Source: an uncultured Dehalococcoidales bacterium
GTDB taxonomy: Bacteria > Chloroflexota > Dehalococcoidia > GIF9 > UBA5629
Assembly (NCBI GenBank): GCA_964605885.1
Contig: CAZSED010000001.1
Location: forward strand, 70,428-134,427
DNA: 64,000 bases
Reading direction: 5' to 3'
Shown here: positions 42,255 to 64,000 of the stretch, piece by piece
Position numbering within the stretch: position 1 is the first letter of the stretch
Layout: each line of letters opens with the position of its first letter
Translations under genes and position numbers: made by a program
Notes under the pieces: generated by a model
Told to the model about the DNA's origin: nothing
What the model saw: the letters and a program-made list of their open reading frames with translations, nothing else
Database searches by the model: none

Positions 42255-42299
42255 GCTGGCAACTGGAGTTATGTGTGACGCGCGGGTCAATAGGAGTTG
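42255..42299. repeat. right copy of the ~46-bp direct repeat, overlapping the stop codon of gene 42287-44551
   Basis: GCTGGCAACTGG (12/12) followed by GCGCGGGTCAATAGGAG (17/18) relative to the left copy. Confidence 0.5.
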
Positions 42300-44551
42300 T
42301 ATAAGGCTTCAAGCTGGCTCAGGCTGGCGAACGAGCCGTCCTGTATCTTCCTGACGATGCCGGTGGAGTCCAGCATGAACGTCTTGGGCACCGAGGAGAT
42401 GTTGTAGTCCGTTCCCACCTGTCCGGTCTCATCCAGCGCCACGGTGAAGGTGTAGTTGCTGGTGGTGATAAGGTCTCCCACCTGGTATTTATTGACGGCG
42501 CCCAGCTGCGGGCCGCAGACGGCAATGATGGGCACGGTGGGATATTTTTCATGCATCTGCTGTATCAGCGGCATCTCGGACCGGCAGGGGCTGCAGTTAT
42601 AAGCCCAGAAATTGATTATCACCTTGCCGCCGCGCAGGTCCTTTAAAGCAATGTTGGTGGCGTCGGTACCGGGCAGCGTGAAGTCTGGCGCCTGCTGCCC
42701 TACTCCAGTCCCCGATGCAGGAGGCGTCTGGAACGTGGCATCGGGCGAAGCGGCCTCATTGCCGGCGGCATCCCTCGATTTCACCTTGTAATGGATGGTG
42801 CCCTGCAGGGGCAGACCGTTCAGCGTTATGCTGTGGTCTTTTATCATCGTTGTGTCCGTGCTGGACGGCTGCACCGTTCCATAGGTCTCGGTGTTGCCGT
42901 AAGCCACCTGGCTGGTAGCCGGCTCATCGGTCAGCCACTCTATCGTGGCCGAAGCATCAACGGAAGAGCTGATTATATTTGCTGCCTTGACTAAAGAGAT
43001 GACCGGAGGCGTTGTATCCCTCACGCCGGTGGTGATCAGCACGCTGGTGGCATCCAGCTGAGCGTCCGGCGCATCATCCGCGTCGCTGAGGCGCGATTTA
43101 ACGGTAATGTGATAGGACTTGTTGGGCTGCAGGTTGGTTAGACTTACCGTGTGGTCCGTGACCAGCGCGTCGTTTTTCGCATTCTCGCATTGCGTACCGC
43201 CCTCCAGGCAGTAGATGACGATGCTGCTTGATTTCTTATCCGTTTGCCAGGTGACCACCCCGCTCGTCTGTGTGATATCGCTGAACTGGATGTTGCTTAT
43301 TTCCGGCGGCCTGGCCACTATGGTCCCGGCGCTGGTTGCAGAAGGGTTTAGCTTGGCCGGCGGCGGCGTTTTAAGCTGGTCCATTACCATCACGACCGAG
43401 ACGATTATGATCCCGGCCAGTGCCAGGAGGGCCAGGAGTATTGGCAGGGGATGCTTCTTTTCCTTTGGTTCCCCTTCGCCCTCCAGCGCCTCCTCATAGG
43501 CGGCTTTCCCTTTCCTTTTCGGCTTGGGCCTTCTCTTTTCGTGCCGGGGCCTTTCTTTGATGCGAGGCGCAGGCGCCGGCATGGCTATGTCATATGGTTG
43601 CACGGCCGGCTGGCCGTAGTACTGGTCAGCTTGCTGCAGGACGGGTTGCCCGTAGTACTGGTCTGCCAGCGGCGCGGCGTTGGGCTGGCCGGCTGAAAGC
43701 GGAGACTCGGATGGCATTGTTGCCACGTGGGACTTGTAATAGTCCTCGGCCTTGAGCATGGGCCTGCCCTTCTCCATTGGCAGGCGATTCCAGCCGCAAG
43801 AAGGACAGATCTTGCTGCGGTCGGGGACCGGTGAATGGCAGTTGGGACACAGGCGCTGCTCCCCGGCGTAATCCTGGGAGGCGCCCGCCTGCATCATGGC
43901 ATCCTGCGGTGCTGACGGAATGGGATTCATTTGCGGATAAATATCCTGGGGTGGGGTGTGCCTGGGCTGCGTCCTCGTCTGCTCCGCCTCGGCGCTGGCG
44001 GCGCGCTTGGCCTCGATGCGCCTCCATAGGTCTCCGGTGTGCCTGCCCGGCATCAGGTTTTTTTCGTCCCTCATCACAGCTCCGCCGCCGAACTTACCGT
44101 GTACCGGGCAAAGGCTCGAGCCTGGCGGAATGGGCGTGCCGCACTTGGCACAGACCTTTTGTTTGGAGGGCGCCTCCGACTCACCGCGGTATAATCCGCT
44201 GGAGTGACCCCCATCGGCCGGCTGCATAACACCAAAGCCCTGGGCCGGGGACTGCGTGACCAGCTGTCCCAAGCGCCCGCAGTACGGGCATTTCCTGGCC
44301 CCCGGGCTGATCTTTGAACCGCAGTTGGAGCAGTAGAACTGGCTGCTGGATGAACCTGTTGAAGCGGGCGCCGCCGCGTATTTACCCGGCCTGAATGAGA
44401 GGTCCTTTTTCCCGCAATGCGGACAGACGCTGGCATCTGGTGATTCGATAATGAGGTGACAACTCGGGCAAAAGCGGGCGCCGCATTTCTGGCAGGTTAC
44501 AGCGTTTGGTTCATTGACCTCATGGCACCGTTGACAGACTATGCTGGGCAT
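42287..44551 (-). CDS. paralog 1: four N-terminal zinc ribbons, Pro/Gln-rich linker, TM helix, FN3-like domains and C-terminal TlpA-like thioredoxin (thiol-disulfide oxidoreductase)
   Basis: Four C-x2-C...C-x2-C modules. TM helix LPILLALLALAGIIIVSVVMV. FN3-like motifs VTWQTD and IEWLTD. Redoxin motif INFWAYNCSPC. Confidence 0.7.
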   Translation of the reverse strand: MPSIVCQRCHEVNEPNAVTCQKCGARFCPSCHLIIESPDASVCPHCGKKDLSFRPGKYAAAPASTGSSSSQFYCSNCGSKISPGARKCPYCGRLGQLVTQSPAQGFGVMQPADGGHSSGLYRGESEAPSKQKVCAKCGTPIPPGSSLCPVHGKFGGGAVMRDEKNLMPGRHTGDLWRRIEAKRAASAEAEQTRTQPRHTPPQDIYPQMNPIPSAPQDAMMQAGASQDYAGEQRLCPNCHSPVPDRSKICPSCGWNRLPMEKGRPMLKAEDYYKSHVATMPSESPLSAGQPNAAPLADQYYGQPVLQQADQYYGQPAVQPYDIAMPAPAPRIKERPRHEKRRPKPKRKGKAAYEEALEGEGEPKEKKHPLPILLALLALAGIIIVSVVMVMDQLKTPPPAKLNPSATSAGTIVARPPEISNIQFSDITQTSGVVTWQTDKKSSSIVIYCLEGGTQCENAKNDALVTDHTVSLTNLQPNKSYHITVKSRLSDADDAPDAQLDATSVLITTGVRDTTPPVISLVKAANIISSSVDASATIEWLTDEPATSQVAYGNTETYGTVQPSSTDTTMIKDHSITLNGLPLQGTIHYKVKSRDAAGNEAASPDATFQTPPASGTGVGQQAPDFTLPGTDATNIALKDLRGGKVIINFWAYNCSPCRSEMPLIQQMHEKYPTVPIIAVCGPQLGAVNKYQVGDLITTSNYTFTVALDETGQVGTDYNISSVPKTFMLDSTGIVRKIQDGSFASLSQLEALYNSY

Positions 44552-44629
44552 GAATTATTTTCCATTTGTACACACGCCTGTTTGCTATATTAAAGTTAAG
44601 GCAACATATCTGAGATGTCAAGTTTGACA

Positions 44630-46009
44630 TCAGTACGATTCGAGCATGAATTCCACTTCAGCCGGGCTGGTGAACATGCCCTGCTGGATCCTGCGGATTA
44701 CACCGCCTTTGTCTATAAAATAGGTCTTGGGTATGCTGACTATTTCATAACGGTTGAAGACGGCGTCGCTGGGGTCCAGGCATACCTCAAAATCAAACTT
44801 GTTCTCCATTTGGACATAGTCTCTTATAGCCGCTTCGTCGGACTGGCTGCCGGCAATGGTCAGCACCATAACGTTGGGGCTGTCGCGGTATTTATCCCAG
44901 AGTGCCTGCAGGTGCGGGAGCTCGATTTTACATGGGGTGCACCAGCTGGCCCAGAAGTTAAGTACCACCTTTTTGCCCATATACTGGCTAAGAGTAACCT
45001 GTGTGCCGTCGAGGTCCTTGAGCGTGAAATCGGGCGCCCTGCTGCCCATGTAAGGGGCAGCATTTGATACGGGCTCTGTCCTGAAGGTGTTGTCGCTGGA
45101 GGTAAGTGTGTTTCCCGAGGAATCCTTGGAGATAGTCTGGTAATGGTACAGGGAATCCGGCGCAAGGCCCTGTAACAAAATGCTGTGGTCGGTCTTCAGC
45201 TCGATTATCTCTATGGAGGGGAACGGGTAGGTAGTATCGTTTCCGTACCTGAGAAAAGAGGTTGACTTGATGTTGGTTTTCCAGCCGACCGTGGCTGAAA
45301 AACTGCTGGCCGACGCCGCGGGGCCATCGGTGAAGCGCAGTTTATCCGAATCCGGCTGAGGATTTGAGGGCGGCGGCTTGGTGTTGGCTACCGAAGCATT
45401 ATCAGCGGCTACCAGCGGTTTGTTCTTATTTACCTCGGGAGGCGTTGCAGGGGGCTTGATATCGTCGGGCTTTTTGGCTGTCGATTGGTTATCCGTGACC
45501 GTTACCGAAGGAGGGTTCTTAACAGTTTTATTGTCAGACGGGCTGCTGCGGGCCAGGGCGGCCAGCTTGCCGGGAAGGTTGGCTGACTCTATAGCACGCG
45601 CCATTGAGCCGGCATTGGCTGCTATGATTACCAGGCAGGCCACACCGGCCAGCACCACGGCAATATTGCGGACCGCCGTCTTATTAACGGGACGCCTGAC
45701 TGGCTTTCTGGCATAGAGGCTCCTTATATCGCGGTCATCGTCTGTTATTTCTCTCTCTTCTGATTTGCGGGCGCGCCGCGGCCTGATCTCGATATCGACT
45801 TCTTCGCTGATGAACACATCCTCTTTTTTAGCAGGCCTGTGTTTTTCCGGCTCAGGACGCCTTTCAGGTGTAAATTTAAGCTTGAACTGCCTTTTCCTGT
45901 CCGGCAATGAGACAGGTATATGCGGCCCTGTGGACTCACAATTAGGGCAGTACTGGTTTATGTAGTTCCGGGGTTTGCCACAACCCTCGCATTTAAATGG
46001 GTATGCCAA
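44630..46009 (-). CDS. paralog 2: zinc ribbon, TM helix, FN3-like domain and TlpA-like thioredoxin
   Basis: TTG start. CEGCGK...CPNCES ribbon. TM helix IAVVLAGVACLVIIA. FN3-like motif VGWKTN. Redoxin motif LNFWASWCTPC. Confidence 0.7.
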   Translation of the reverse strand: MAYPFKCEGCGKPRNYINQYCPNCESTGPHIPVSLPDRKRQFKLKFTPERRPEPEKHRPAKKEDVFISEEVDIEIRPRRARKSEEREITDDDRDIRSLYARKPVRRPVNKTAVRNIAVVLAGVACLVIIAANAGSMARAIESANLPGKLAALARSSPSDNKTVKNPPSVTVTDNQSTAKKPDDIKPPATPPEVNKNKPLVAADNASVANTKPPPSNPQPDSDKLRFTDGPAASASSFSATVGWKTNIKSTSFLRYGNDTTYPFPSIEIIELKTDHSILLQGLAPDSLYHYQTISKDSSGNTLTSSDNTFRTEPVSNAAPYMGSRAPDFTLKDLDGTQVTLSQYMGKKVVLNFWASWCTPCKIELPHLQALWDKYRDSPNVMVLTIAGSQSDEAAIRDYVQMENKFDFEVCLDPSDAVFNRYEIVSIPKTYFIDKGGVIRRIQQGMFTSPAEVEFMLESY

Positions 46010-46053
46010 TTTAGATCAGACCTCGCCGCAGGTGAAGAATATACCGGCACTAC

Positions 46054-46638
46054 TCACTGTGAGGGCTTGAAAACCTCGGGCACAGTGGGAGATGCCAGCC
46101 ATTTGGTGATTGTATCGTAGTTGTTAATTACGTACATTGCCAGCAGGATGAGAAGTATAACCAGGATAACGCTAACTATTATAGTGGTGAGGCTGCCGCC
46201 TTTGCTCCTTTCGGGCTGCTCTTCCTCCTCTTCCTCTTCATCGGATTCGTCCTCGTATTCAGCCTCAAAGTCCTCATCCTCATCTCTGCGTTTGCCCTTT
46301 TTATATTCTTTTTCTTCAAGCCGGTCCATATCTTCAATATGGTCCAGCATGGGGCTGCGCCGGCGGATGCCCGCCGGGAATTTGTCCTCGTCATCCTCCC
46401 GGCTGCCCCGCATCCTGGATGGCGCTTCGTCAGCAATATCTACCGGCCCGGCGTCGACAAAACCGCCGGCGGAAGGTGTGAAGCTCTCCCTTCGTCCTGC
46501 AGCCGGACCTGCGCTTGCCCCTGCAGCGGATTCAGTCCTATTCACAAAGTCATGCGGCCCCAGACTGCCGCAGGCATCGCACTTCTGATTGATGGAAGGC
46601 ATGGGATTTCCGCATTTACATCTGAACTGAGTTTCCAA
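46054..46638 (-). CDS. paralog 3 (truncated): zinc ribbon, poly-acidic tract and TM helix only
   Basis: Start chosen at a TTG with RBS AAGGAG 8 nt upstream (METQFRCKCG...). CKCGN...CDACGS ribbon. Acidic run DEDEDFEAEYEDESDEEEEEEEQ. C-terminal TM helix. No FN3 or TlpA domains. Confidence 0.5.
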   Translation of the reverse strand: METQFRCKCGNPMPSINQKCDACGSLGPHDFVNRTESAAGASAGPAAGRRESFTPSAGGFVDAGPVDIADEAPSRMRGSREDDEDKFPAGIRRRSPMLDHIEDMDRLEEKEYKKGKRRDEDEDFEAEYEDESDEEEEEEEQPERSKGGSLTTIIVSVILVILLILLAMYVINNYDTITKWLASPTVPEVFKPSQ

Positions 46639-46784
46639 TGTATTTTCTCCTTGAAAAAGAAATTTGCGGATGTGCGGAGGCAGTTGAACGGCTGCTGATT
46701 TGATCCATATACGAGGCAATTAGTATCATTCAATATCTACACTACAACGGGATAAAACTGATGTCAAGGTATTTTTGGGCAGTA

Positions 46785-48353
46785 TTATAAATCGTTGAGA
46801 ATCTGCTGCACCTGATCGATGTTAAAGTTGCCGAATTCAACAGCGCGAATAATGTTCTCGCCGTCGATGAAGAACGTGCAGGGGACCTTCTCAACGTTGT
46901 AGAGATGAGCCGTGGTCTTGTAGGCGTCCAAACATATGGCGAATGTAGGGTCGCCAAGGCGGGACTTGTAGGCCGAAATGGCCTTGTTTATCTCCTCCGG
47001 CTTGCTTTCCAGGAATACGCCGATTACAGCCACCCCCTGCGGGTTTCTGTTCCTAACCGTTTGCAGCAGCTCAAGCTCACGGTCACACTCGGGACAATAA
47101 ACGGCCCAAAAGCTCAGCAGGATTTTTTGACCCTTATAGGTGCGCAGGGAAATGCTTTCCTGTGAATTGACCAGCGGAAGGGTGAAATCCGGTGCGCGGT
47201 CGCCTATTTTCGAGCCCAGCGGCACGGAAACATAGGTTACAAAGCTGTCCGGCGGCTCCATAATCGCCTGATTGCCGTCTGCATCAACGGATTTTATTCG
47301 ATAGTAGTAAGTCTGGCCGGGCTGCAGGCCACTGACGCGGATTGAATGCTGGGTGATCAGCCTGGAGTCGACTGATGTTGAGCCCGAGGTCGACTGGTCC
47401 AGCCCGTAGAGTACCTGCGCGGTGGCAGGCTTGTCGGTCGCCCAGGTAACGACGGCGCTTATATCGGACGGCAACACTGTGAATTGTGAGACCACGGGCG
47501 GCTGGGTGTTGCTCCTAGCCAGCGTGCTGAATGTTTGGTCCATGCTGCGCGATAGCTCTTTGCCGTCTTTATCCATAGCCAGCACTGCGAAGTGGTAGGC
47601 GGTCGCAGGCTCAAGCCCGCTGAGAAGCACACGGTGCGATGCCGTCCGGTTGTCTGCCTGAGAGGCCAGGCCGTACAGGTCGGCCTTGCCGTACAGGACC
47701 TTGCCATAGGCCGCCAGGTCAGTAGTCCAGGCAATGCTGGCCCCGGTGGCTGTTACCTCGGACACTGCTATGTTTGCTACGGCCGGCATGGCGGTCGGGG
47801 TTGCAGACTGAGAGGGGGCCTTTGGCACGGTGAAAAGCGACCTGAAAAGGCCTGATTGATAGGCCAGCAGGCCGCATAAACCTACGATTATGACGACGAT
47901 GGCAGCGATAATAATGACGTCAAGCTTTTTAAGCCGTTTGACTCCGATGGCGGAACTGCGCCTGCCGATCTTGGCGCCGGCCTGACCCCTGGCCGGTTCC
48001 CCGCGCTTCTCCCCTTCGGGTCCGCTGCCGCCGGGCTGGTCCTGGGCCTGCGGGTAAATCTTGGGTTTCTGCGTGCTTTTACCGCAGTGGGGGCACTTGG
48101 GCAGCGCTGATGGCAGCACGGCCATGCAGTTAGGGCAGCGGTACTGTCTCTGTTCCTGCCCGGAAACAGAATCTCCCATGCCGGAAGCCGACCTCTTCTC
48201 TATAATCCTTTGCCAGAGGCTAACGCCCTGCTCCTCCACCCGGTCCATATACCAGCGTTTGCCGCAGGCAGGGCAGATTGCCGTGCCTTCCGGCACAACC
48301 TTGCCGCACTGCCGGCAGAACTTCGGGCCCGATTGTGATTCAGCTTCAGCCAT
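46785..48353 (-). CDS. paralog 4: two zinc ribbons, TM helix, two FN3-like domains and TlpA-like thioredoxin
   Basis: CRQCGK...CPACGK and CPNC...CPHCGK ribbons. TM helix VIIIAAIVVIIVGLCGLLA. Redoxin motif LSFWAVYCPEC. Confidence 0.7.
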   Translation of the reverse strand: MAEAESQSGPKFCRQCGKVVPEGTAICPACGKRWYMDRVEEQGVSLWQRIIEKRSASGMGDSVSGQEQRQYRCPNCMAVLPSALPKCPHCGKSTQKPKIYPQAQDQPGGSGPEGEKRGEPARGQAGAKIGRRSSAIGVKRLKKLDVIIIAAIVVIIVGLCGLLAYQSGLFRSLFTVPKAPSQSATPTAMPAVANIAVSEVTATGASIAWTTDLAAYGKVLYGKADLYGLASQADNRTASHRVLLSGLEPATAYHFAVLAMDKDGKELSRSMDQTFSTLARSNTQPPVVSQFTVLPSDISAVVTWATDKPATAQVLYGLDQSTSGSTSVDSRLITQHSIRVSGLQPGQTYYYRIKSVDADGNQAIMEPPDSFVTYVSVPLGSKIGDRAPDFTLPLVNSQESISLRTYKGQKILLSFWAVYCPECDRELELLQTVRNRNPQGVAVIGVFLESKPEEINKAISAYKSRLGDPTFAICLDAYKTTAHLYNVEKVPCTFFIDGENIIRAVEFGNFNIDQVQQILNDL

Positions 48354-60359: not shown

Positions 60360-60513
60360 GCCCTCGTCCGATAAACAATTGTAGCAAATAAGTTATGACA
60401 ACATGAAAGAGCCCATCCCACAACCGAAAAATAGTGAAAATTACTAATTGACAGCCTCCCAGGCCGGTTATATCATGGCTGAGTTGTAGACGCCCGGCAC
60501 GGGGAAGGTTATC

Positions 60514-61428
60514 ATGATTTTCCAGGCTATCATACTCGCTGTATTACTGCTGTCTGCTGTCAACCTGCTGTTAAATCTGGCCCTTTTAAAACGGCCCTCC
60601 AAATCCAGCAGGCGGCTGCAGTCCGCCCCCTTCGTTTCCGTGCTGGTGCCAGCCAGAAACGAGGAAAAGAACATCAGGGCCTGCCTGAGCTCTCTGCAGC
60701 AGCAGGACTACCCTGACTATGAAATTGTCGTGCTGGATGACAGTTCCTCCGATGCCACTGCTGCCATTGTTGCACAAATTGAGGCCGTCGACGCCAGGGT
60801 GCGGCTGCTGAGAGGCAAGCCGCTGCCGGCCGGATGGGCTGGCAAGCCCTATGCCTGCCACCAGCTGGCGCAGGCTGCCCGTGGCTCGTGGTTCCTTTTT
60901 ACAGATGCCGATACTATTCACGAACCGCATATGCTACGCAGCGTGATCAGCCTTGCGGTCGAGGAGAAACTCTCCCTGCTCTCCGGCATGCCCCGGCAGC
61001 TTATGTCGGGCCTGCCGCAGATGATAGTTATGCCTTTCATGTATTTCATCCTTTTGACCATGTTCCCTATCTGGTTTCTCAACCATACACGAAGGCCATG
61101 GCCTACGCTTGCCATAGGGCAATTCATGCTTTTCCCCAGGGAGGAATACTGGAGAGTCGGCGGACATGAAGCCGTCAAGACCAGGATAATTGAAGACGTC
61201 TGGTTCGGCGCCGGGATCAAAAGGGCCGGCGGCCGTTTCATCTGTGCTGACCTGTCACAGGTCATGTCCACAGACATGTACCACAATGTTCCTTCCATGA
61301 TTGAGGGCTGGGGAAAATGGTTTTACTCGGTGATCGCCATGTCGCCGCTGCTGCTTTTCGGACTGTTTGCCATAGTTTACTTCATCTTCCTGGCGCCATT
61401 TTTCTGGCTGGCAAACGGGTTGATGTAG
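60514..61428 (+). CDS. glycosyltransferase family 2 (catalytic part), terminated by in-frame TAG 61426-61428
   Basis: VSVLVPARNEE...VVLDDSSSD and DAD motifs of GT-A/GT2. Confidence 0.75.
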   Translation: MIFQAIILAVLLLSAVNLLLNLALLKRPSKSSRRLQSAPFVSVLVPARNEEKNIRACLSSLQQQDYPDYEIVVLDDSSSDATAAIVAQIEAVDARVRLLRGKPLPAGWAGKPYACHQLAQAARGSWFLFTDADTIHEPHMLRSVISLAVEEKLSLLSGMPRQLMSGLPQMIVMPFMYFILLTMFPIWFLNHTRRPWPTLAIGQFMLFPREEYWRVGGHEAVKTRIIEDVWFGAGIKRAGGRFICADLSQVMSTDMYHNVPSMIEGWGKWFYSVIAMSPLLLFGLFAIVYFIFLAPFFWLANGLM

Positions 61429-61665
61429 GAAACAGGGCTTGCGGAATGGACGTTGCTGGCCCTGGCCCAGGTGCTGGTGGTGCTGGTTATGCGCTGGTCG
61501 GTCGATCATCGTTTCCGGGAGCCGGCCGTCTCATTCATCTTCCACCCACTCGGCGTATCATTTCTGATACTGGTGGCGCTGTACACCGCGGCACGCACAG
61601 CTTTAGGGGCCGGCATAGCCTGGAAAGACCGTCTTTACGACAGCAGATCCAACATAAAATAGGCC
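61429..61665 (+). other. in-frame continuation of the GT2 ORF after the TAG, encoding two C-terminal TM helices (likely a pseudogene or readthrough tail)
   Basis: Same frame as 60514-61428. ORF 61453-61662 sits in this frame, and the hydrophobic tail is typical of membrane GT2 enzymes. Confidence 0.4.
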
Positions 61666-61770: not shown

Positions 61771-62022
61771 ATGCAGTCCAGCCTCATAGGAAAGATTGAA
61801 AAAGCCAAGCGTTACGCCCAGGAACCCGAACGTGTCACCATCACAAATTTTTCCGCAGAATTCAGGGGTGAGAACGACAGCCACATCCTGGGGTTAAGGG
61901 AAGGTAAATGGCACTGCAACTGTCATTTTTTCTCTCAGTGGGGCGAATGTGTGCACATCATGACCCTCCAGCGCCTGCTCGGAAAAATGATTCCGTCAGA
62001 TGATTCCACGACGCTGGAATAG
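61771..62022 (+). CDS. SWIM zinc-finger domain protein
   Basis: CNCHFFSQWGECVHIM gives a CxCx(n)CxH motif. RBS GGGAGG. Confidence 0.6.
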   Translation: MQSSLIGKIEKAKRYAQEPERVTITNFSAEFRGENDSHILGLREGKWHCNCHFFSQWGECVHIMTLQRLLGKMIPSDDSTTLE

Positions 62023-63421: not shown

Positions 63422-64000
63422 TTACGGTTTAACTGTGCGAGGCATGGCGCGTCCTTTCCATACGGCCTTGCCCTGGTAAGTAAGAACCATTGAACCCACC
63501 GCTATTACGATCATAATGATGGCGCTCACCGGGTAGACAACCAGCAGATAAGAGGGGAACTGGAAGCGGTGGTTGTTCACCCACCACAGGAACAGGCAAA
63601 GCAAGACGGCTATGCCAGCCGTGGCCGTGGCTTCAAATGGGATATTGGGCTGTGCCAGCCCGATTCCCAGCACAACGAGCGGGCTGATGAAGACCATCAG
63701 AACGACCAGGTACATGGCCGTCAGCAGCAGGGGGTCAAAGTTGAAAGAGGCAAAATTGCTCTTGGTCAGCCCGTGCCAGGTCTCGTCCAGGTTATGGTAC
63801 ATGCGGCAGAAGACCTGCCCGTTGCCATCCAGCAGTCTGTAGCACAGGCCCATGCTGTGTATGCGCCTGCCTATGGCGATGTCGTCCACGACATTCTGTC
63901 TCACCGCAGCGTAACCACCGGAAGCGAAATACGCCTCCCGGGCGAACAGCAGGAATTGACCAAGGCACGAGAATAACAGAGGGTTGCGTGAGAGCCGGGT
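63422..64000 (-). CDS. glycosyltransferase family 2 with C-terminal TM helices (partial, N-terminus beyond window end)
   Basis: The reading frame is open to the window edge. A GT2 core segment is followed by four TM helices, similar in layout to the 60514-61665 gene. Confidence 0.55.
   Translation of the reverse strand, partial: TRLSRNPLLFSCLGQFLLFAREAYFASGGYAAVRQNVVDDIAIGRRIHSMGLCYRLLDGNGQVFCRMYHNLDETWHGLTKSNFASFNFDPLLLTAMYLVVLMVFISPLVVLGIGLAQPNIPFEATATAGIAVLLCLFLWWVNNHRFQFPSYLLVVYPVSAIIMIVIAVGSMVLTYQGKAVWKGRAMPRTVKP

Follow-up and report, generated by a model that had tools for sequence, protein, structure and literature searches.

The 64,000-nucleotide stretch of DNA analyzed here (the window) contains a GT2 glycosyltransferase gene in which a stop codon lies within an otherwise continuous reading frame. 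We asked whether this stop is real and, if so, whether it inactivates the gene, divides the enzyme into two pieces or is decoded as an amino acid.

Reading frame of the interrupted gene

In the sequence of positions 61420-61440 (...TTG ATG TAG GAA ACA GGG...), a TAG codon occupies 61426-61428, in frame with the ATG at 60514. The GT2 ORF (60514-61428) encodes 304 amino acids and is terminated by this TAG, past which the frame remains open for 77 further codons up to a TAG at 61660-61662, giving a read-through product of 382 aa. Gene finders called a 304-aa product and, in the same frame, a 69-aa product from TTG 61453. There was no second stop or frameshift elsewhere in the interrupted gene. 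The initial annotation had described ORFs 60514-61428 and 61453-61662 as sharing a frame and split by a single TAG; rereading of the sequence bore this out, and only its end coordinate of 61665 required correction, being 3 nt beyond the actual stop.

All parts of the gene lie on the plus strand. The first 304 codons (60514-61425) encode an N-terminal TM helix, the GT-A catalytic domain and the first C-terminal TM helix. Codon 305 is the in-frame amber TAG, and the continuation (61429-61662; 77 codons plus TAG) encodes the last two TM helices and a conserved C-terminal GAGxxWKxRxY tail. The 69-aa ORF from TTG (61453-61662), which exists as a gene finders' call, is a putative reinitiation product. 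Coding scores were 0.24 for the N-terminal part and 0.23 for the downstream part in frame, as against -0.82 and -0.39 out of frame. A Shine-Dalgarno-like element (GGGGAAGG) is located 6 nt before the GT2 ATG. Upstream of this start, at 60448-60476 (+), is a sigma-70-like promoter match (TTGACA-17-TATCAT, 11/12) that is a match to the consensus only. The 1.8-kb region held 6 promoter-like matches compared to 1.3 expected.

Homologs and syntenic orthologs

A homolog search with the read-through product as query returned 3105 relatives, and protein lengths were taken from the best 120 of these. Among the best 120, 119 are single proteins that span nearly the whole query, with lengths of 379-399 aa (mostly 382); the sole exception is the 304-aa product of this same lineage. 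The read-through length of 382 aa is shared by more than 100 homologs, and the top full-length matches reached E ~1e-179 at 100% coverage. The initial annotation had named homologs that end at this position, with a separate small TM protein gene downstream, as the finding that would count against an interruption; there were none among the best 120 of the 3105 relatives. By these sequence comparisons, the interruption is confirmed far beyond chance, as full-length 382-aa homologs match the read-through product.

The nearest relatives (63-69% identical) are encoded in MAGs of Dehalococcoidia from fens, peat and soils. Identity above 71% was not seen for any relative in the protein collection, in the genome collection or in a protein-guided scan of metagenome contigs, and so no near-identical intact allele was recovered. 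An exact-pattern scan of metagenome contigs with the flanks of codon 305 around NNN returned no match in a collection that does not include the source contigs.

Seven syntenic orthologs were identified in species-representative Dehalococcoidia genomes (loci L004, L005, L008, L009, L011, L012 and L021). The gene order common to these loci is HEAT-repeat, PAC2, PmbA and TldD genes, then the GT2 gene, an 83-aa ORF, FolC and a further GT2 gene. In 7/7 loci the GT2 gene is a single 382-aa ORF with a sense codon at 305. Because gene order is shared and the 382-aa ORFs are uninterrupted, we consider the seven loci to be orthologs and the ancestral gene to have been uninterrupted. At the column of the TAG, the closest clade reads Leu (CTG or CTT), and other sequences read ATG, ATC, TCC, GTA, GTT or ACT. 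Alignment at position 305, proposed in the initial annotation as a check for a conserved sense residue, thus gave a sense codon throughout but not a conserved residue, as the column is variable among homologs and Leu is found in the closest clade. Since TAG is one step from TTG and the closest clade has Leu, a change from Leu (TTG) to amber is the most economical history; the ancestral codon was most likely Leu TTG, altered by a single T-to-A change.

The same ortholog from another MAG, on a 217,732-bp ENA contig, was called as its C-terminal 265 aa only (P0136, in the cluster of P0003). The short call may reflect a long-read frameshift error or another disruption that arose independently at the N-terminus.

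Protein family and predicted structure

The interrupted GT2 matched Pfam PF00535 (Glycos_transf_2) over residues 42-155 with 89.2 bits against a cutoff of 23.3, and PF13641 and PF13506 likewise exceeded their own cutoffs. The NCBIfam HpnB profile aligned unbroken across the stop, with residues 26-376 of the read-through product matched to profile positions 31-385. The homologs share residues D131, D133, E227, D228 and G265 (in EGWGKW) without exception, and the interrupted gene has them too. We take D131-A-D133, E227-D228 and the G265 region to be the GT2 catalytic motifs (DxD; ED/TED; Q/ExxRW-like helix).

P0004, the closest intact homolog, was examined as an AlphaFold2 model with a mean pLDDT of 88 and a pTM of 0.87. 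In this model helices 278-304 and 310-333 are joined by a five-residue loop (305-309) that holds residue 305, and the last helix spans 340-363. The initial annotation had assigned two C-terminal TM helices to the downstream part, and this agrees with both lines of evidence: two hydrophobic segments lie past the stop, at approximately 311-331 and 338-362, and match the last two helices of the model. The top solved structure for the P0004 model in Foldseek was PcManGT (6yv7; E = 7e-14, TM-score 0.56-0.61), a membrane-embedded GT2 mannosyltransferase that resembles the model in combining a GT-A domain with membrane helices, although sequence identity between the two is only 19%. Membrane-embedded synthases followed in the structural ranking. 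Hyaluronan synthase and BcsA are synthase-type GT2s, and a processive, polymer-forming role was not supported for the window GT2.

The HpnB (TIGR03469) and CruC/CruG lipid-acceptor GT2s have, like the window GT2, an N-terminal TM helix, a GT-A domain, C-terminal TM helices and a WK/RxR tail. However, the read-through product scored far under the NCBIfam equivalog cutoffs for HpnB (173.6 bits versus 379.25) and for CruG (NF045692; 128.6 bits versus 600), and it was assigned neither to HpnB nor to the CruG/CruC type. Its neighbours also differ, being PlsY genes and GT2 paralogs, with no hopanoid or carotenoid genes in the neighbourhood. The JGI label on homologs, 'chlorobactene glucosyltransferase', is automatic. 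On sequence, the interrupted gene resembles a conserved membrane GT2 glycosyltransferase of an HpnB/CruC-like subfamily.

Gene neighbourhood

The locus has four paralogous GT2 genes, of which the interrupted one is 30-37% identical to the other three. The order past the window end (contig stretch L041, 5167-9952) is PlsY-GT2 (386 aa)-PlsY-GT2 (381 aa)-GT2 (385 aa)-FolC-83-aa ORF-interrupted GT2. The paralog at 63422-64000, described in the initial annotation as partial, is so within the window; it lies on the minus strand, is cut by the window end only, and is 385 aa long in L041. PlsY, the glycerol-3-phosphate acyltransferase, precedes two of the four GT2 genes, a pairing that suggests a membrane glycolipid synthesis locus. 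The arrangement is conserved in related Dehalococcoidia at least from the interrupted gene through the next two GT2 paralogs. Literature searches on Dehalococcoidia glycolipid glycosyltransferases and on the sample accessions returned nothing.

The 83-aa ORF next to the interrupted gene (61771-62022, +) had no Pfam match even at E <= 10. It is 76-86% identical in relatives, which puts it level with or above the adjoining genes (approximately 71% for the GT2, 62% for FolC and 80% for TldD). It contains a C-x-C-x(9)-C-x-H pattern (CNCHFFSQWGECVH) that by eye looks like a small zinc-binding (SWIM-like) motif.

Elsewhere in the window, positions 42287-48353 (-) encode an unusual paralog set of three large proteins (754, 459 and 522 aa), with a 194-aa ORF lacking a Pfam match between the last two. 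Two of the three had AhpC-TSA/redoxin matches together with fn3, purple-acid-phosphatase-N and zinc-ribbon matches, several of them weak or faint; the third had redoxin and thioredoxin domains only.

Conservation of the segment past the stop

The segment cut off by the stop comprises a two-helix hairpin and the C-terminal tail, and it is kept in all four local paralogs. Its 77 codons align to residues 306-382 of the 382-aa homologs. Eight residues that are invariant in 52 homologs lie past the stop (Q319, F334, P345, G365, W370, K371, R373 and Y375), and all are retained in the window gene. Judged by this conservation, the truncated 304-aa product is most probably inactive or badly impaired.

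We compared the two parts of the gene for signs of decay. The ratio of C-part to N-part identity was 0.89 for the window gene versus its orthologs, and 0.84 +/- 0.06 for intact ortholog pairs at similar divergence. In a leave-one-out analysis over 119 homologs, the window GT2 violated 1 of 80 columns conserved at >=97% (E234G); intact homologs had a mean of 0.65 violations, and 46% had at least one. Neither the identity ratio, the conserved columns nor a count of lesions gave evidence of relaxed selection or further decay, and the promoter-like match and Shine-Dalgarno-like element ahead of the gene are intact. This absence of decay fits a very young lesion and a gene still under selection equally well.

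Codon 234 itself (61213-61215, +) is GGG (Gly) in the window gene, where Glu is found in at least 97% of 118 intact homologs and in 52/52 sequences of alignment A2. E234G may be a change of this lineage unconnected with the stop, or the earliest indication that constraint has relaxed.

Occurrence of the stop codon in several datasets

The exact 304-aa protein was found on 9 contigs from NCBI, JGI, ENA and Logan. Contigs from JGI 3300022556 (L001) and Logan SRR5214703 (L003) were identical to the window. The contig from JGI 3300010302 (L002) differed by 4 SNPs over 8487 bp (0.05% divergence), all four outside the GT2 gene, and had the same TAG. The stop is common to at least three datasets and to at least two genotypes from different samples. 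No intact allele at 72-99% identity was present among 5.8 billion clustered proteins.

Stop codon usage and search for UAG decoding

We searched 84 kb for genes and signals associated with UAG decoding, consisting of the window and four overlapping or flanking contig stretches and representing about a third of one 241-kb contig. The only tRNA gene in the 84 kb was a tRNA-Ser, and an Rfam search of the window gave no match besides it. No tRNA-CUA, pylTSBCD or methylamine methyltransferase genes or domains were found in the 84 kb. The region has 83 complete gene calls, of which 31 end in TAG, 27 in TAA and 25 in TGA, making TAG the commonest stop; the interrupted GT2 also uses it as its final stop. 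Other TAG-ended genes in the window had no coding-like extension past the stop (scores of -0.65 to 0.02). Together with the 31/83 genes ending in TAG in the 84 kb, this led us to reject genome-wide reassignment of the codon. The predicted fold of 61400-61540 was no more stable than shuffled sequences (z = 0.00), which rules out a PYLIS-like or readthrough-stimulating structure after the stop. The TAG was not conserved in any ortholog, all of which have a sense codon at this position; given a stop unique to one lineage and the absence of a stimulatory structure, there was no support for programmed readthrough.

Search for a two-gene form of the enzyme

A start at TTG 61453, in frame and 8 codons (25 nt) past the stop, makes reinitiation possible in principle. 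The 17 nt before this TTG paired with the anti-SD at -3.5 kcal/mol, the 31st percentile of random window positions. Window genes with a clear Shine-Dalgarno ranged from -8 to -12 kcal/mol, and the median of 32 gene starts was -4.6. TTG 61453 lacks a distinct ribosome-binding site, as its pairing is at background level.

Many short proteins came up when the 77-aa C-terminal segment was searched exhaustively; 12 of their sequences were retrieved, and 3 of the 12 were examined in context. None of the three gave evidence of a stand-alone C-terminal family: L042 is a contig-edge fragment, L043 adjoins a HisKA gene on a low-coverage scaffold with Ns, and L044 is on a 686-bp contig. In L043 (1360-1653; 2.3x coverage) the last ~97 GT2 codons are directly adjacent to a HisKA histidine-kinase ORF, the N-terminal part of the GT2 is missing upstream, and the sequence may be a chimera of the assembly or what remains of a gene. 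With 119 of the best 120 matches being single proteins and the three short ones an edge fragment or remnants, no natural two-gene form of the enzyme was found.

Evaluation of alternative explanations

It is very unlikely that the stop arose in sequencing or assembly, or that the consensus took up a minority allele while the living population carries a sense codon. Several public records may share read sets, but the same TAG is found in JGI 3300010302, a genotype of its own. The recurrence of the exact product across four data sources, the lack of an intact variant and the fact that a substitution is an atypical assembly error all argue in the same direction, and the error option of the initial annotation can largely be dismissed given the TAG in JGI 3300022556, JGI 3300010302 and Logan SRR5214703. 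Just as unlikely is that UAG is decoded as pyrrolysine or via a suppressor tRNA, which would place a non-standard amino acid in a tolerant loop of a full-length enzyme. In favour of this, position 305 accepts many residues, and the gene search covered only 84 kb of the genome. In addition, some Dehalococcoidia lineages carry Pyl systems with pylS/pylSn (PMC5424206), so pyrrolysine is not dismissible on taxonomy. The initial annotation considered pyrrolysine unlikely, and this stands with regard to the missing pyl context in the 84 kb, but taxonomy provides no argument for it. Against decoding are the lack of pylTSBCD, methylamine methyltransferase and tRNA-CUA genes in the 84 kb, the use of TAG as the commonest stop, the lack of coding-like extensions after other TAG-ended genes, the absence of TAG at 305 in every ortholog and the lack of a PYLIS-like structure. 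The window GT2 has in common with the Pyl-decoded mtmB, mtbB and mttB an in-frame TAG inside an otherwise continuous coding sequence. Unlike in those genes, the TAG is not conserved, there are no nearby pyl genes and no structure, and the residue is not functionally conserved.

Function despite the stop would require either a split enzyme of 304 and 69 aa, formed by reinitiation at TTG 61453, or low-level near-cognate readthrough of UAG, and we regard this as unlikely. The break is in a short, variable inter-helix loop, and inter-helix loops are where membrane proteins best tolerate splitting; an in-frame TTG follows within 8 codons, and the downstream segment is undecayed with full coding statistics. 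The lack of decay, however, is equally expected at a strain divergence of 0.05%. A split is further opposed by the background-level pairing before TTG 61453, by the absence of a natural break at 305 in any ortholog or in other homologs among the best 120 of the 3105, and by the nature of the short C-terminal homologs examined (L042, L043 and L044), which are an edge fragment or remnants. Counting together the two-piece enzyme (304 + 69 aa) and decoding of UAG by a Pyl system or suppressor tRNA, it is rather improbable that the stop leaves the gene functional. A young nonsense mutation in an otherwise intact, conserved GT2 gene of an uncultured Dehalococcoidia population is the probable explanation, and it is favoured because TAG terminates normally and no signal supporting either decoding or a split was found.

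A probable young nonsense mutation and its meaning

The nonsense-mutation option of the initial annotation is the best supported. The gene has two features of a nonsense pseudogene, with uninterrupted syntenic orthologs that carry a sense codon and a stop that removes conserved sequence which activity presumably requires, and since there is no further decay, the mutation would be very young. Young nonsense-mutation pseudogenes of bacteria likewise show one lineage-specific premature stop against uninterrupted syntenic orthologs, with paralogs nearby. In contrast to these, the window GT2 is without secondary decay, and its loss of function is one that we infer.

We propose that one T-to-A change turned Leu TTG at 305 into amber, at a variable residue that, in the model, lies in the short loop joining the third-last membrane helix to the second-last. 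Ribosomes would normally terminate at this codon, as expected because TAG is the commonest ordinary stop of the organism, and would release a 304-aa protein. That protein would retain the GT-A domain, but its final two membrane helices and the invariant WKxRxY tail would be missing. The three intact adjoining paralogs may make this loss tolerable.

A lineage-specific amber mutation is of an ordinary kind and involves no new coding mechanism. For annotation, the 304-aa and 69-aa calls are best joined into a single gene that is marked as broken by an amber codon. A two-piece enzyme or UAG decoding, if true, would explain the perfect-looking preservation of the downstream 77 codons, and expression of the downstream part, whether as a split enzyme or through UAG decoding, would bear on the reach of Pyl and suppression in Chloroflexota. 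As a probable nonsense mutation, the locus would illustrate cleanly a very young lesion that has become fixed in the population of one environmental lineage of Dehalococcoidia, affecting one of four clustered lipid-type GT2 paralogs.
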